In this document: positions 25,393-54,211 of the stretch, in pieces | How positions within the stretch are numbered: position 1 is the first letter of the stretch | Layout of the letters: every line of letters starts with the position of its first letter | Virus record (IMG/VR): IMGVR_UViG_3300036985_004624 | Length of the DNA stretch: 64,000 nucleotides | Origin: a virus | Direction: 5' to 3' (one strand) | Translations under genes and position numbers: made by a program | Notes under the pieces: generated by a model | What the model saw: only the letters and a program-made list of their open reading frames with translations | Databases searched by the model: none | Told to the model about the DNA's origin: nothing

Positions 25393-25557
25393 TGTGTTGT
25401 TCTTTCTATAAATTAAACAATGTAGCTATTATGCACTAAATAGCGATTTGAGTCAAGTCCGGTAAGTAGATTGATAAATAGTGTACACTGTGGAAATAGT
25501 TCCACATTGAATGATGGAGATCCCCTATTAAGGGAGTACCCATTCAAGGAGATTATC

Positions 25558-26922
25558 ATGGGAAGACCCATACAGAAAAAATGGTTCGGACCGGCCACAG
25601 GCACAGGTTCACAAATTGTAGTTAGCGGCGTTAAATTTGCCGACGGAACTACAGCAACAAGCGATTTTATTATCAAACAAACAGGCTCTAATGCTTATGT
25701 TGTGCAAGATTCCGCATTATCACATGATGCAGAAATTGTATTCATGGTTAATGCAACAGACGTAGGAGATTTAAACCCCGGCGAATGTTTCATTCTTGCT
25801 ACACCATTTGGTGGTTCTGCTCTACCATGTGCAAAAATTGCACAATACAGAGTAGATCTATTTGAGGCAGATGGCTCGGTTGCAAGTTATAGTTGGTCAA
25901 CAATACCTGCTGCTGCGCCGGGCGAAGCTGATTTAATTACTGGATCGGGCGGTGTTGGTGCATTGTTAACACTTGCTGTCGACGTTGCCGGGTCTGGATA
26001 TTTTACTGCACCTGCTGTAACACTTACAGGCGGTGGTACAGGTGGTGCTGCTCACGTAACTGTCGCAGGTGCAACTGGAGTAGTAGCAACTGCGGTTATC
26101 GATTCAGCTGGATGGGGATATTCAGGTGTGTCGGTTGCTGCTCCTCCTGCATCAGTTACTGCTGTTTTAACTCCGACGTTGACAAACGGTGTGTTGAGTT
26201 TAGTTGTTGCTAATGCTGCTGCAAATGGATACTATAATGCTGTTCCAGCAGTAACAGTTGCCGCGCCACCGGCCGCTACAACTGCCACTGCCACTGCCAC
26301 TATTTCTGCTGGCCAAGTAAACGGCTATATAACACTTGTAGGCGGCGGTTATTATCCGGCTATACCTTTAATTGCTGTCGGTGCTCCACCGGCACCCGTT
26401 ACTGCTACCGCAACACCCCCATTAAATGATGGTGCTGATGGTGTAACACTAGGCGCATTGGTAATAACTGCTGCTGGCGGGTATTATTCCGTAGAACCAG
26501 TAGTCACATTAGGTGGCGGTAATGGTGATGCTGTTGCTGTCGCAACTGTAGCCAACGGTGTAGTTACTGGTGTAACTGTTACTGGCGCTGGAACAGGCTT
26601 CGTCGGGCTTGTCACTGTTTCTATTGCTGTACCCGACGTGGCACCCGTTCAGGCGGTTCTTAGCGCAGTATTAACAAACGGTGCTGTGACAAGTATCTCC
26701 AGAGATACACTGGGTGCAGGATACCTTGCTGCACCTGGTCTGGTTTTTGATGCTCCTCCAGCGGCTGTTGCTGGTGCTGCAACTGCTACACTGACTGCTC
26801 ATAGAGTCACATCAGTGGCCGGTGTTACTGGGTCTGGATATTTCACAGCGCCGGTAGTGTCGGTTGCGGCAGCAAATGTTGCGCCAGTTCAGGCCACATT
26901 GACTGCTACATTCTCTGTCTAA
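25558..26922 (+). CDS. Ala/Gly/Thr/Val-rich virion structural protein with GxGYxxxPxV repeats (start corrected from 25471)
   Basis: AGGAG RBS before MGRPIQKKWFG; GATAAATA at 25473-25480; repeats GSGYFTAPAV, GGGYYPAIP, GAGYLAAPGL. Confidence 0.75.
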   Translation: MGRPIQKKWFGPATGTGSQIVVSGVKFADGTTATSDFIIKQTGSNAYVVQDSALSHDAEIVFMVNATDVGDLNPGECFILATPFGGSALPCAKIAQYRVDLFEADGSVASYSWSTIPAAAPGEADLITGSGGVGALLTLAVDVAGSGYFTAPAVTLTGGGTGGAAHVTVAGATGVVATAVIDSAGWGYSGVSVAAPPASVTAVLTPTLTNGVLSLVVANAAANGYYNAVPAVTVAAPPAATTATATATISAGQVNGYITLVGGGYYPAIPLIAVGAPPAPVTATATPPLNDGADGVTLGALVITAAGGYYSVEPVVTLGGGNGDAVAVATVANGVVTGVTVTGAGTGFVGLVTVSIAVPDVAPVQAVLSAVLTNGAVTSISRDTLGAGYLAAPGLVFDAPPAAVAGAATATLTAHRVTSVAGVTGSGYFTAPVVSVAAANVAPVQATLTATFSV

Positions 26923-26936
26923 GAAATTTAGCTCAA

Positions 26937-26964
26937 CAAAAAGCCCACTTTATGTGGGCTTTTT
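26937..26964. terminator. bidirectional intrinsic terminator
   Basis: AAAAAGCCCAC-TTTAT-GTGGGCTTTTT between convergent units. Confidence 0.8.
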
Positions 26965-26966
26965 AT

Positions 26967-26992
26967 TGGTACCGCTAGTAGGAATCGAACCC
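26967..26992 (-). pseudogene. 3' remnant of a disrupted tRNA gene (T-loop, acceptor 3' strand, CCA)
   Basis: minus strand GGTTCGATTCCTAC-TAGCGGT-A-CCA. Confidence 0.75.
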
Positions 26993-27023
26993 GGATCTAA
27001 TCTATAATGATGATAAATACTGT

Positions 27024-27689
27024 ATGATTAAATATATAAACTGCTGCCATTGTGGAATACATACAGAATTACCTAAATCAAACCCATATAAAAAGTTTTG
27101 CTCGATTAAATGTGGAGCATTATTTCAAAATAAAGATAAAATAAATCTGTTAGCGATCGAATACGAAAAATCACCTAATATATGTTTCACATGCGAATGT
27201 AATCTGCCGTACTCAAAAAGACATAATAAATATTGTTCACGATCTTGTTCCGCGAAAACTACGAAAAATAATACCACTCACGGAAAATACATAATAACAG
27301 AGAAAGAATGTATTATATGCAAATCTATAACAACCAATAACAAAGTATGTTCGACATCTTGTAGGGAAATTCTATTATCAAAACCAAGAAAATATTTTAC
27401 AGAGGAAGAAAGATTACATGCTAAACGAGCAATACAACGTGAAGCAAATGCCAGGTATTGCGCTAAAAAGAAATATAATACACCAGTTGACGAAGATTTA
27501 TCCGCTATAAAACTTTTTTACAGAAACTGTCCGCCGGGATATGAAGTGGATCATAAAACACCCATATCTAAAGGCGGTGCCCACTCCTTGGTTAATATGC
27601 AATATCTCACAATTTCTGATAATAGAAAAAAACATGCTAAACTAGATTGGTGCCCCGGGGGCGAATCAAACGCCCGACACCATTCTTAG
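27024..27689 (+). CDS. HNH endonuclease with N-terminal Cys-rich zinc-binding repeats (putative homing endonuclease)
   Basis: YEVDHKTPISKGGAHSLVNMQYLTISDNRKK HNH motif; repeated CxxC...FCSxxC; own late motif at 27012-27019. Confidence 0.85.
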   Translation: MIKYINCCHCGIHTELPKSNPYKKFCSIKCGALFQNKDKINLLAIEYEKSPNICFTCECNLPYSKRHNKYCSRSCSAKTTKNNTTHGKYIITEKECIICKSITTNNKVCSTSCREILLSKPRKYFTEEERLHAKRAIQREANARYCAKKKYNTPVDEDLSAIKLFYRNCPPGYEVDHKTPISKGGAHSLVNMQYLTISDNRKKHAKLDWCPGGESNARHHS

Positions 27690-27723
27690 GAGGAATGTAC
27701 TCTATTCACTGAGCTACCGGGGC
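27648..27723 (-). tRNA. tRNA-Arg(CCT), with A19/U56
   Basis: GCCCCGG/CCGGGGC acceptor, CATTC-CTCCTAA-GAATG anticodon arm, encoded CCA. Confidence 0.9.
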
Positions 27724-27750
27724 CTATTCTATCCATTGAACTATAGCGAT
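27724..27750 (-). pseudogene. 5' remnant of the disrupted tRNA gene (acceptor 5' strand + D-arm)
   Basis: ATCGCTA-TA-GTTC-AATGGATA-GAAT; ATCGCTA pairs with TAGCGGT of the 26967-26992 remnant. Confidence 0.75.
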
Positions 27751-27751
27751 T

Positions 27752-27985
27752 TTATGTTTCACTTAACGCCTGTCGAAATCCTGTATATCCGCCCGGAACA
27801 AAAGACCCATCTATAAAAATTTGTGGCACAGTTCGTACTTTTGTACCGATTCTATCTTCTAAAGTTTGAAGATTCGAACCTTCTCTAACATTTATATAGT
27901 TGTATTGTATATCATTTGTTTCACATAATTGAACTGCTTGTGTGCAATAGGTACATGAATCCGCTCCGTAAATCTCTACCTGCAT
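27752..27985 (-). CDS. glutaredoxin
   Basis: CTYC active site, TVPQIF and GGY motifs. Confidence 0.88.
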   Translation of the reverse strand: MQVEIYGADSCTYCTQAVQLCETNDIQYNYINVREGSNLQTLEDRIGTKVRTVPQIFIDGSFVPGGYTGFRQALSET

Positions 27986-28029
27986 ATTGTGTCTCCGTTA
28001 AGTTACTTACTTACCTAAAAACTTGTAGG

Positions 28030-28239
28030 TTAATCTATAAATGACATAAATTCTAGCCGACCATCTGGATACTCGAATAGCCCCAATAATGATACATTTT
28101 CTCTACGATTTCGTCCCTGCGGATATTCTGCTATCTTAATGACTAATACATTTTTTCGGTATGTTTCTGTTATCTTAACTACTTCGCCTTTGTATCCTTC
28201 GAACTGAAGTTTACTGCCTTCTTTATAATATGATGCCAT
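28030..28239 (-). CDS. hypothetical protein
   Basis: 69-aa ORF with RBS. Confidence 0.55.
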   Translation of the reverse strand: MASYYKEGSKLQFEGYKGEVVKITETYRKNVLVIKIAEYPQGRNRRENVSLLGLFEYPDGRLEFMSFID

Positions 28240-28250
28240 TATGCCTTTTA

Positions 28251-29180
28251 TTAAATCCCCGGAATCGTGCCAGTAAACGACGGAGAAGATTTTATACCTT
28301 CTAAATCAGAATATGTTGTACACATTGGCAATTTGCATATAATGGGCTCCTTAGATAAAGTAAATCCTGTAAAAATATTACTTAAATTTGCACCCTGATT
28401 ACAGCAAGTATTCGAAACATTGCCTATTTCATCAATCCGAACATAGGTATTAGGTACATGACATGTCCACCCGGTATATCTGTTCATATTTTTTGATACC
28501 ATCTCTGCTGGATCTGTTCGATATATAATTTCATCATTGTGATTATATATCCGTACCCATTTATCCACTGGATATGCCGATTCCGATATCCACGATATCT
28601 GTTCGGATGTATATCTTTCATTAACAGTTTGCCAATTATCCATAATTGCCTTTGTTGTCACAGAAAATCCGGCAGCGACTAATATATTATATACTGCAAT
28701 GCATTCATCCCATCTGTCGGGCAGCATCATTAAGCAAATTTTTCCTAACTTCTTATGCACGTTATAGATGAGATCAGCAATAGCTATAAATCTATCTAAA
28801 TTAGCATACTCTAAATGATAGGATAGAAATACAGCATTTATCATTGGTGTAATTCTTTCCCAGAATGCAATAGGTCTTGCACCATTACTTAATAAGTTAA
28901 TATTAATATAATCTGGTTTCTCTAAAATAATCTTTTCAATATCTGGATGATACGTCGGTTCGCCGCCACCTAATAACACATCACACGGTGGTAATTTTTT
29001 CAATGTATCCTGTACCACCTGTGTATTATGAAACGGAGAATTCCCCGAATAAAATTTAGGAATACAATAGCTGCACCGATATGTGCATATGTTGCCTAAT
29101 ATCCAGTATACTTTTATATTTCTGCGAGATTTGCCATCTATATAAGCTACTTCCGGATCATAAATATTCAATTCATTCAT
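28251..29180 (-). CDS. radical SAM protein with C-terminal Cys-rich (SPASM/twitch-like) segment
   Basis: CTYRCSYC, GGGEPT. Confidence 0.85.
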   Translation of the reverse strand: MNELNIYDPEVAYIDGKSRRNIKVYWILGNICTYRCSYCIPKFYSGNSPFHNTQVVQDTLKKLPPCDVLLGGGEPTYHPDIEKIILEKPDYININLLSNGARPIAFWERITPMINAVFLSYHLEYANLDRFIAIADLIYNVHKKLGKICLMMLPDRWDECIAVYNILVAAGFSVTTKAIMDNWQTVNERYTSEQISWISESAYPVDKWVRIYNHNDEIIYRTDPAEMVSKNMNRYTGWTCHVPNTYVRIDEIGNVSNTCCNQGANLSNIFTGFTLSKEPIICKLPMCTTYSDLEGIKSSPSFTGTIPGI

Positions 29181-29446
29181 ACAATACTTATCTGACTTGC
29201 TGCTATCATTTTTGCTGCAATTTCCTCTGCTCTGGCCTGTATATCCGATTTAGTCATACACGCTTTCTTCCTGATTAATGCATCTCTTACCCATTGCGGG
29301 AAATGAGATCCTTCTAAGTTGGCAAGTTGCTCGGCCGTATAATTATCTAAATTATCTAGTACAAGTTGAACGTCTGGCTTCTTTTTCATTTTATTAAAAA
29401 ACGAATCTTTGTATCCGCGTGGGCCTAAAGCATAATTACCTTCCAT
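29177..29446 (-). CDS. hypothetical protein (likely start MEGNYALG)
   Basis: the internal Met abuts the upstream gene's stop. Confidence 0.5.
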   Translation of the reverse strand: MEGNYALGPRGYKDSFFNKMKKKPDVQLVLDNLDNYTAEQLANLEGSHFPQWVRDALIRKKACMTKSDIQARAEEIAAKMIAASQISIV

Positions 29447-45990: not shown

Positions 45991-46065
45991 TGGCGCCTTG
46001 TGTGGGAATCGAACCCACTGCCAGGAAGTTTAGAAGTTCTTGCTCTACCGTTGAGCTAACAAGGC
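45991..46065 (-). tRNA. tRNA with CTA anticodon (putative amber suppressor; weak anticodon stem)
   Basis: GCCTTGT/ACAAGGC acceptor, canonical D and T arms, AGAAC-TTCTAAA-CTTCC, G73-CCA. Confidence 0.65.
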
Positions 46066-52689: not shown

Positions 52690-52731
52690 CTATTACCTAT
52701 ATATTTAATATTTATCGCAATATAGTCCATT

Positions 52732-52754
52732 AAAATAGGGACCGAAGTCCCTAT
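52732..52754 (-). terminator. intrinsic terminator after tmRNA (CUUCGG tetraloop)
   Basis: ATAGGGAC-TTCG-GTCCCTAT-TTT. Confidence 0.8.
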
Positions 52755-52759
52755 GTGAT

Positions 52760-53125
52760 TGGTTTGGTTACAAGGTCGTTCTACCTCGGAGTTGGTGTTT
52801 CTTAGGCAACCATTTCCATAGCCATATCGCTATCAGCGAAAGCCGACAGGTCAAGAGCTACAAAAGACTCAGTTGTATATGCGTTTGCATTTACAGATTT
52901 GCTTGATTAACGGTCATCGCCTACCGTGTTGCCGTCTCTACTATCTCACGCAATCGATTACCGGAGCAGGCCCATCATAAAGAAATTACAGACTATATTC
53001 GTCCGGAATAAACGGGACATATTCTTCTGGTAGTTCTAATATATTCATAAATTTCCTTATGGTGGACCTGGCGAGATTCGAACTCGCGTCTTGCTTGCCT
53101 TCATTTCAAAGGGATTACAACAATT
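52760..53125 (-). ncRNA. ssrA: permuted (two-piece) tmRNA; tag ANAYTTESFVALDLSAFADSDMAMEMVA; outer ends approximate
   Basis: acceptor piece ...GACGCGAGTTCGAATCTCGC-CAGGTCC-A-CCA (ends 53060) precedes the coding piece starting GGGCCTG (52973); G3-U70; tag ORF 52802-52888 after TAAAT. Confidence 0.88.
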
Positions 53126-54211
53126 CTATCCTACAAAATTATGAAACAACGGAATAAACACATTTCGCTGATTCTTTTCCTTAAATGCATATGTTTTTGT
53201 CATCGCAATAATACACCCATTCCTATCATTATTACTTACCTTAACTATACGATCAAACCCCACCGATGTATCAATATTAATATTACTAAGAATATTCGAT
53301 ATTAAGAATCCACTTCCTACAGGAATATACATATCTTGATCACATAATAATATCCACTCGTTTGAGGCTATCTTACTACCTTCTAAAAGTGCTTCCTCTG
53401 CATTTGTTGTATTATATACAGGAATAATCTCTGCGTCAACCTCTGATAATCCCGGAGATCTTCCTACATTAATTTCAAATACAGTAGGATCATTTACTGG
53501 AACAATTACACTAAATGTAATAGGGCGATTAGTTATAGGCTTAGGTATCTTTGTGCCCGTGACACATATCTGATAACTATATAAATTTCTTTCTGCTACA
53601 GCTCGGGATATTCCGCGAAATTCTGCTGCATCTATCAATAGATTAGCAAACTTTATATCTTTTTCTCCTCCATTACCCACTCCCACATAGCGTGTAGTTT
53701 CTATTGTAGGAAACCATCCCGAATCTAAAAATAATTTAATTGTTGAAGCAATTGACATAAATCTTAAATGTGTAGAATCGAGCAGACCGTATTCGTCATA
53801 CGATAAATCGCCTAGTAACATACGTTCTATAACACCTATATTTGTCATGATAGGCATACAACACGATATCCGAGCAGCAGGACTGCTAACTTCATATACA
53901 AATTTCATAGCATCTATTGGATTTGTTAAATGTTCGAGCACATCACCCATCACAACTGCATCATAATTACTGCCAGGTAAATCGGATTCTTTAGGATTAT
54001 TAAGATCCATAAGAACTACTTCGTCCATGCGCTTTATTGCTTGAGAAAGTGACTGTGAACTTACATCGACACCTGTCCATTTTGCAACAGGATGTAAACT
54101 CTTAAATACTTCGGCTAATCGACCGCCTGAACACCCTAACTCTAATACATTAATTGCTTCTGAAGAAACTAATCTCAGTAATTCATTGTTTATATTGTCA
54201 TATTGTTTCAA
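53126..54211 (-). CDS. class I SAM methyltransferase fused to a glycosyltransferase-like C-terminus
   Basis: VLELGCSGG, GDVLEH, GLLDSTHLRF; C-terminal FSVIVPV...LLCDQD. Confidence 0.75.
   Translation of the reverse strand: MKQYDNINNELLRLVSSEAINVLELGCSGGRLAEVFKSLHPVAKWTGVDVSSQSLSQAIKRMDEVVLMDLNNPKESDLPGSNYDAVVMGDVLEHLTNPIDAMKFVYEVSSPAARISCCMPIMTNIGVIERMLLGDLSYDEYGLLDSTHLRFMSIASTIKLFLDSGWFPTIETTRYVGVGNGGEKDIKFANLLIDAAEFRGISRAVAERNLYSYQICVTGTKIPKPITNRPITFSVIVPVNDPTVFEINVGRSPGLSEVDAEIIPVYNTTNAEEALLEGSKIASNEWILLCDQDMYIPVGSGFLISNILSNINIDTSVGFDRIVKVSNNDRNGCIIAMTKTYAFKEKNQRNVFIPLFHNFVG

Follow-up and report, generated by a model that had tools for sequence, protein, structure and literature searches.

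Homing endonucleases that reside in essential genes are thought to hide in self-splicing introns or inteins, or else to sit between genes. In phage Aeh1, nrdA is split by an endonuclease gene. Integrase-borne islands and prophages insert in tRNA genes and duplicate the 3' part of the gene as att repeats. Among free-standing enzymes, SegB of phage T4 is an intronless GIY-YIG nuclease that is encoded in the phage tRNA region, between tRNA genes, and that recognizes the T-loop box (PMC2330249). T2L tRNA genes are cut by SegB, which is passed on along with the tRNA genes next to it at the expense of the recipient's markers (PMC2330249). The free-standing endonucleases SegF, SegG, and MobE of T4-like phages spread through break repair with co-conversion of their flanks (PMC2790892), and group I introns with homing endonucleases occupy the anticodon region of bacterial and phage tRNA genes, whose function is kept (PMC3984707). 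Synthetic Cleave-and-Rescue drives combine a nuclease that disrupts a needed gene with a linked, uncleavable version of that gene (PMC6442612).

Here we analyzed a stretch of 64,000 nucleotides of viral DNA (IMG/VR record IMGVR_UViG_3300036985_004624; "the window" below), in which a resident tRNA-Arg(CCT) gene is divided into two halves, which we call scars. Our main reading, to which we give a probability of roughly 85% on the basis of sequence comparisons, is that the ∼720 nt between the scars are a mobile "cut and replace" cassette made up of a free-standing HNH homing endonuclease gene and a convergent, overlapping, diverged tRNA-Arg(CCT). A search of published full text, in which subscription papers are only partly covered, returned no description of a cassette of nuclease plus substitute inside a tRNA gene.

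The locus shares with SegB an intronless nuclease gene in a phage tRNA region. However, SegB is a GIY-YIG enzyme encoded between tRNA genes and reads the T-loop box of many tRNAs, whereas here an HNH protein with zinc ribbons is encoded inside a single tRNA gene, both halves of which are left, and the nuclease always comes with a substitute whose anticodon is the same. SegB had been named as the precedent in a preliminary description made from the letters of this DNA; the parallel is fair for homing in tRNA clusters but does not extend to the type of enzyme or to its place between tRNA genes. Like the present cassette, some of the free-standing endonucleases of T4-like phages land inside a gene. 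In split protein genes, both pieces still cooperate; the pieces of a tRNA cut in the anticodon arm cannot, and here a complete second gene would maintain the function. Group I introns restore the tRNA by splicing, whereas this locus has no ribozyme, an ORF antisense to the tRNA, and a replacement in place of restoration. Integrase islands also target a tRNA gene and also bring sequence that keeps the tRNA working, but they use a recombinase; the present locus lacks both an integrase and direct repeats of the tRNA end, and its substitute is another gene, present in full. Finally, Cleave-and-Rescue is an engineered Cas9 system of animals and plants, whereas the present case would be a natural phage element that homes into the gene that it cuts.

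Results

Organization of the split tRNA gene

The features of the locus are listed below by window coordinates. Related contigs are designated by L and a number; L002 has the same split arrangement as the window, and L004 and L139 carry an uninterrupted tRNA gene.

27724 to 27750, minus strand: 5' scar of the resident tRNA-Arg(CCT), tRNA positions 1 to 27; 27 of 27 bases identical to L139 490 to 516
27648 to 27723, minus strand: replacement tRNA-Arg(CCT), 76 nt, CCA encoded (ARAGORN; Rfam tRNA, 55.9 bits)
27024 to 27689, plus strand: HNH endonuclease gene, 221 aa (Pfam PF01844, phrog_1271)
27012 to 27019, plus strand: GATAAATA box, 4 nt ahead of the HNH start codon
27001 to 27023, no strand: cassette end, spacer separating the HNH start from the 3' scar; identical to L002 at all 18 aligned bases
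26990 to 27000, minus strand: 3' scar, donor-type part, with variable-region TTAGAT and 5' T-stem strand CCGGG; identical to L002 and L004
26967 to 26989, minus strand: 3' scar, resident-type part, with T loop, 3' T-stem strand, acceptor strand, discriminator, and CCA; identical to L139
26940 to 26966, no strand: two-way terminator hairpin and T run, common to the tRNA unit and the convergent structural gene

Read along the minus strand, the order is 5' scar, intact tRNA-Arg(CCT), antisense HNH gene, 3' scar, and terminator. The substitute tRNA begins on the base directly after the end of the 5' scar, and the final 42 nt of the HNH ORF are antisense to this tRNA. These parts, including the intact tRNA-Arg(CCT) on the next base and the overlapping antisense HNH gene, had been placed at the same positions by the preliminary description and were recovered with ARAGORN, the ORF calls, and Pfam. 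The arrangement is not an assembly artifact, as two contigs from two other data sets (L137 and L138) match 6210 nt of the window with 100% identity.

The 5' scar consists of the acceptor strand ATCGCTA, positions 8 and 9, a full D arm (4 bp with a loop of 8 nt), and positions 26 and 27. Its D loop is of the resident type, unlike the L002/L004 type. The 3' scar ends at 26967 in TAGCGGT-A-CCA, and its resident-type part differs from L002 and L004 at three positions. The acceptor strands of the two scars pair at 7 of 7 positions, one of them U-G, which reproduces the pairing described before. The earlier limits of the 5' scar also stood, but the 3' scar is longer than first drawn: it reaches 27000 and includes the variable-region TAGAT and CCGGG. 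This CCGGG, the 5' strand of the T stem, is unpaired with CCTAC, the 3' strand, so the T arm of the 3' scar is not whole. In the junction alignment, the spacer at 27001 to 27023 carries a second TAGAT beside the 3' scar's own.

The intact gene at the same locus in relatives

A gapped pattern made from both acceptor strands led to L004. In this contig, an uninterrupted 75-nt tRNA-Arg(CCT) (1283 to 1357) lies between the same neighbors as in the window, the glutaredoxin gene upstream and the terminator and structural gene downstream. The phage group was then traced through the 69-aa gene that neighbors the locus (window 28030 to 28239; the marker gene below), and the nearest relatives of this marker led to further loci. 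Eight contigs (L128 to L135) contain an intact tRNA gene of the L004 type, with the same sequence in all of them. The most informative empty site was that of L139, which at the same locus has an uninterrupted 75-nt tRNA-Arg(CCT) (490 to 564; Rfam, 62.7 bits) and which is nearly identical to the window in the marker gene (98.1% of the DNA, with an identical protein) and in the glutaredoxin gene (98.3%). Its intact tRNA agrees with the 5' scar of the window at 27/27 bases and, counted from the T loop, with the 3' scar at 25/25. Relative to L139, ∼15 nt of the window (tRNA positions 28 to 42, the anticodon stem-loop) are swapped for the ∼720-nt cassette. The anticodon arm had previously been described as missing, which is correct in outline, although the precise loss is limited to these ∼15 nt. 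The site is polymorphic, being filled in the window, L137, L138, L140, and L141 and empty in L139.

Because an intact tRNA with exactly these halves is found at the same locus (L139, L004, and L128 to L135), the two halves are not a product of chance, and the proposal that both come from one ancestral tRNA is borne out. Likewise, the uninterrupted ATCGCTA...TAGCGGT tRNA that the preliminary description had expected in relatives without the HNH gene is present at this locus. Descent of the intact allele from the split one is excluded, since the lost anticodon arm could not be regenerated. The guess that one Arg tRNA had been swapped for another was closer than its wording implied: the ancestral gene is also a tRNA-Arg(CCT), with an anticodon equal to that of the substitute. 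In IMG/VR, an exact search for the 5' scar returned no match, and the INPHARED phage genomes held no relative of the region beyond similarity at the level of tRNA.

Alleles of the locus within one population

Among contigs whose glutaredoxin is ≥98% identical to that of the window, the locus occurs as three alleles. One is the intact resident gene (L139), and another is the filled site (the window). The third (L126 and L127) has the substitute tRNA without scars and a methyltransferase-like gene instead of the nuclease. The eight bases that follow the tRNA in L126 could still be translated into the -LNW end known from other members of the nuclease family; there is a slight hint that the L126/L127 form may have descended from a filled site after loss of the nuclease. 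An order from empty to invaded to nuclease lost would fit the usual life cycle of homing endonuclease genes. The locus is thus a good test case, with empty, filled, and putative nuclease-less descendant alleles in one natural population.

The HNH protein and its family

The HNH ORF matches the Pfam HNH family at 23.2 bits (cutoff, 21.4) and phrog_1271 at 1.7e-10. All matches in Pfam and PHROGs were of the HNH type, with no GIY-YIG domain, so the protein does not belong to the SegB family. Its 221 aa comprise three zinc-ribbon modules of the Cys4 type, after which comes the C-terminal HNH domain. In the AlphaFold model (pLDDT, 87), the zinc-ribbon modules are linked by long helices, with the HNH domain at the C terminus. 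Foldseek matches to the PDB were weak throughout (best E = 0.015), the HNH part resembling the HNH of type I-F Cascade and one zinc module resembling YacG. We found 79 relatives of the window protein in a large protein collection and aligned 35 of them. Residues D176, H177, N191, and N200 of the HNH motif are invariant in these 35 homologues, as are four Cys residues of the central zinc module. No second copy of the nuclease is present elsewhere in the window.

The C-terminal tails of the homologues fall into recurring classes that correspond to tRNA 3' ends translated from the opposite strand: a Trp codon facing CCA is followed by acceptor and T-arm sequence in varying frames. Most members of the family must therefore overlap a tRNA gene. 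At each of the nine loci with DNA sequence, the HNH gene abuts or overlaps a tRNA or tRNA-like gene on the opposite strand. The relatives in this layout are 40 to 69% identical to the window enzyme, and several lie inside other split tRNA genes. Three of them (L144, L145, and L146; 54 to 69% identical) and one further contig occupy the same glutaredoxin locus. Scars are seen at both ends in L144, where the contig end clips the 5' scar, and in L146, where a different pair of acceptor strands is again paired at 7/7 positions. Only the 3' scar is present in L145, L156, and L157 and only the 5' scar in L152; at the L154 locus, no clear scar was readable. The L152 enzyme (56% identical) abuts a tRNA-Arg(CCT) with the 5' scar ahead of it. 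Those of L154 and L156/L157 (46 to 47% identical) abut tRNAs with the anticodon CCA, and in L156 and L157 the end of the 3' scar resembles the end of the substitute tRNA. A donor with nuclease and tRNA but without scars was not found among the loci examined.

The CCA-anticodon tRNA of L156 (2522 to 2609, minus strand) and L157 (690 to 777, minus strand) is itself unusual. It is 88 nt long and has a long variable arm, and this type II shape is odd for a Trp anticodon.

The word GATAAATA that precedes the HNH gene in the window also stands 5 to 7 nt ahead of the ATG in L002, L144, L145, L146, L154, and L156. The window contains 18 copies, against 8.5 ± 3.3 expected. All but two of these (16/18) fall outside long same-strand ORFs (≥100 aa), and most are 4 to 77 nt upstream of ORF starts (for example, at 25473 to 25480, 27012 to 27019, and 33322 to 33329). 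The word is probably a promoter element of this phage group, in which case the cassette would bring its own expression signal. The T4 late-promoter word TATAAATA was not enriched in the window, and a scan for sigma-70-like promoters gave no more than chance.

The substitute tRNA

The substitute tRNA folds into a perfect cloverleaf (−31.7 kcal/mol; z = −3.3). This cloverleaf is kept in seven relatives of the substitute, with compensatory changes in 13/21 pairs. The substitutes of the window and L126 differ at only two positions, which together form one compensated T-stem pair. Judged by its folding and by this pattern of change, the substitute tRNA is under structural selection. The codon AGG makes up 4.1 per 1000 codons in the long ORFs of the window. 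Each allele observed at the locus retains one tRNA-Arg(CCT) gene or an equivalent, and this speaks for such a gene being needed by the phage.

In L144 to L146, the gene paired with the nuclease is tRNA-like and has the anticodon CCT (L146, 1651 to 1723; L145, 2551 to 2621; L144, 1840 to 1932; all on the minus strand). It has a 4-bp D stem, a 5-nt loop, and no linker at positions 8 and 9, and in L145 the CCA is not encoded. Neither ARAGORN nor Rfam called it, and its acceptor, anticodon, and T stems have compensated changes among the three contigs. That the "substitute" of this branch is such an odd gene counts against the homing reading.

The three tRNA-Arg(CCT) alleles also differ in the elbow pair 19:56, which is G:C in L139, U:A in the L004 type, and A:U in the substitute (27648 to 27723; D loop AGTGAATA, T loop TTTGATT). 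Each variant is a compensated double change, and all are Watson-Crick pairs. As a speculation, the altered elbow might guard against nucleases, either SegB-like enzymes that act on the T-loop DNA box or host enzymes that act on the tRNA.

Signs of cassette mobility

The contrast between cassette and flanks was clearest in the comparison with L002. Its HNH gene is 93.3% identical to that of the window, against 76.3% for glutaredoxin, 84.6% for the 69-aa marker gene, and ∼70 to 76% for the structural gene; the excess of identity in the HNH gene over the flanks is significant (Fisher p = 8e-11).

The scars differ in type between the two phages. Those of L002 are identical to the intact gene of the L004 type. 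Those of the window follow L139 in the D loop, T loop, and 3' T-stem strand, as does the terminator (region 26923 to 26966, 44/44 nt the same in L139). The sole exception is the 5' T-stem strand, which is CCGGG, as in L004 and L002, where L139 has GTAGG. The 3' scar of the window is thus chimeric, with donor type next to the insert and resident type further out. This is the pattern expected of co-conversion during break repair, although it could also stem from later recombination and not from the homing event. Going by the scar types, the right-hand crossover would lie between tRNA positions 53 and 56 and the left-hand one between the D loop and the junction. An unpaired T stem of the same kind is found in the 3' scars of L144, L145, and L146. 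We read this as a sign that the conserved T-loop box may be the first usable homology when the cassette enters a diverged allele.

Sharing across phage groups was seen in L148 to L151, which belong to another group and contain an array of 27 tRNAs. They have only 27648 to 27744 in common with the window, at 96 to 97% identity (97% for L148). This region consists of the substitute tRNA and 21 nt of the 5' scar, the acceptor strand of which differs from that of the window. Neither a nuclease gene nor a 3' scar was found near the shared tRNA in these contigs. The HNH/flank contrast with L002, the chimeric 3' scar, and the sharing with L148 all point to mobility of the cassette. On the other hand, the substitute tRNA of the window is nearer to that of the nuclease-less L126 (74/76) than to that of L002 (66/76), which counts against the homing reading. 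It follows that tRNA and nuclease recombined apart at least once and that their histories are partly separate, and later recombination may have shaped the locus.

Three of the properties by which homing endonuclease genes are recognized can be seen here: a nuclease of the homing type with intact catalytic residues, presence or absence at the same site in close relatives, and co-conversion with more similarity in the element than in its flanks.

Discussion

A proposed cut-and-replace mechanism

The preliminary description had proposed a selfish homing cassette that replaces its target tRNA. This proposal is strengthened by the polymorphism between near-identical genomes, the contrast in conservation between cassette and flanks, the chimeric scar, and the layout kept with distantly related enzymes. 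During mixed infection, this nuclease, expressed from its own putative promoter, would cut the resident tRNA-Arg(CCT) gene of a cassette-free phage in or next to the anticodon arm. We place the putative cut there because this arm is the sole part absent from occupied alleles. The break would be repaired from the cassette-bearing genome, with crossovers in the short stretches that diverged tRNA alleles share (D arm and T loop). The recipient would be left with dead 5' and 3' halves and would gain the nuclease and the substitute tRNA. The enzyme should not cut the substitute, since its anticodon arm and variable region differ from those of the target. Because the substitute would keep the decoding of AGG, the insertion would cost the phage little. 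Later loss of the nuclease gene would leave the substitute tRNA, with or without a scar.

The main rival to this mechanism treats the nuclease as a bystander. In that case, the arrangement would have arisen when diverged tRNA genes underwent ordinary recombination at their conserved D and T boxes, and the HNH gene would be a passenger or have another role, such as DNA packaging or defense. Crossovers do sit in conserved tRNA boxes, the substitute tRNA occurs without the nuclease in L126/L127 and in L148 to L151, and the tRNA locus is a boundary between 98% and ∼78% identity of the window and L139. These observations have to be set against the enzymes themselves, which down to 40% identity keep the convergent overlap with a tRNA in differing genome contexts, several of them within split tRNAs; so constant a pairing is hard to square with a passenger. 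Moreover, the excess identity between diverged phages lies in the nuclease gene and not in the tRNA alone, and presence and absence inside a near-identical population is what a homing element predicts. We consider the bystander explanation unlikely.

We give even less weight to the idea that the tRNA halves are working parts kept by selection, either as RNA decoys or as a leader of the embedded tRNA or a signal for its processing. In an unrelated phage, the substitute is accompanied by the D-arm part of the 5' scar at 97% identity, which would suit such a role, but co-conversion hitchhiking explains this stretch as well. Similarly, the acceptor strands still pair at 7/7 positions in the window, L002, and L146, but the T stems are unpaired in the window, L144, L145, and L146. 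The scars also vary and decay: a recognizable 5' scar is missing from L145, the 3' scar from L148, and both scars from L126.

An intron-like insertion, or a split tRNA rejoined as RNA, is scarcely credible, for although the halves stand in the correct order on one strand, ∼15 nt of the anticodon arm are absent and the ORF is antisense to the tRNA. Specific forms were examined and rejected. For a group I or group II intron, Rfam returned no intron family at E values up to 10 on either strand, and ∼15 nt of exon are missing. For an archaeal-type split or permuted tRNA rejoined as RNA, positions 28 to 42 are in neither half. For integrase-mediated insertion, the HNH gene is the only ORF in the insert, and the substitute and the scar have no common acceptor or T-arm sequence.

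Wider implications of the cut-and-replace reading

If the cut-and-replace reading is right, it would add a third survival route for homing endonucleases, in which the target is destroyed and a resistant working copy is supplied. The logic of engineered drives would then be found in nature, on an RNA gene. It would also suggest a way in which the tRNA genes of large phages could turn over rapidly and spread horizontally, and the compact zinc-ribbon HNH family may read tRNA-gene sequences with high specificity.

More tentatively, and at somewhat less than even odds in our judgment, the HNH family as a whole could be a radiation of natural "home and rescue" tRNA-gene drives. Each branch would read an anticodon arm, carry a resistant substitute, and jump between unrelated phages, the target being the Arg-CCT tRNA here and a CCA-anticodon tRNA in distant branches. 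Such jumps would be feasible since repair would find barely sufficient homology in the conserved D and T boxes of tRNA genes. A side effect of a radiation of this kind would be the spread of new tRNA variants, including altered elbow pairs, through phage populations.

Other features of the region

In the comparison of window 26750 to 28239 with L139, identity falls from 98% upstream of the tRNA locus to ∼78% in the downstream structural gene, so the tRNA/nuclease site marks a boundary of genetic exchange. Phage nuclease genes have been described as exchange boundaries (PMC10448857). A second polymorphism lies 500 nt from the tRNA locus: a radical-SAM gene (28251 to 29180; region 28243 to 29189) is absent from L126 and from L140 to L143, and L143 is otherwise 99.8 to 100% identical to the window on both sides of it.

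The convergent structural gene (25471 to 26922) encodes repeats rich in Ala, Gly, Val, and Thr, with a GYY/GYF-like motif at the end of each repeat. PHROG matches of its product to head-closure and virion proteins were weak, and relatives vary greatly in the repeat region. Outside the cassette, ARAGORN also called a suppressor-type tRNA with the anticodon CTA (45991 to 46065; labeled Pyl) and a permuted tmRNA with a 28-residue tag (52711 to 53152).
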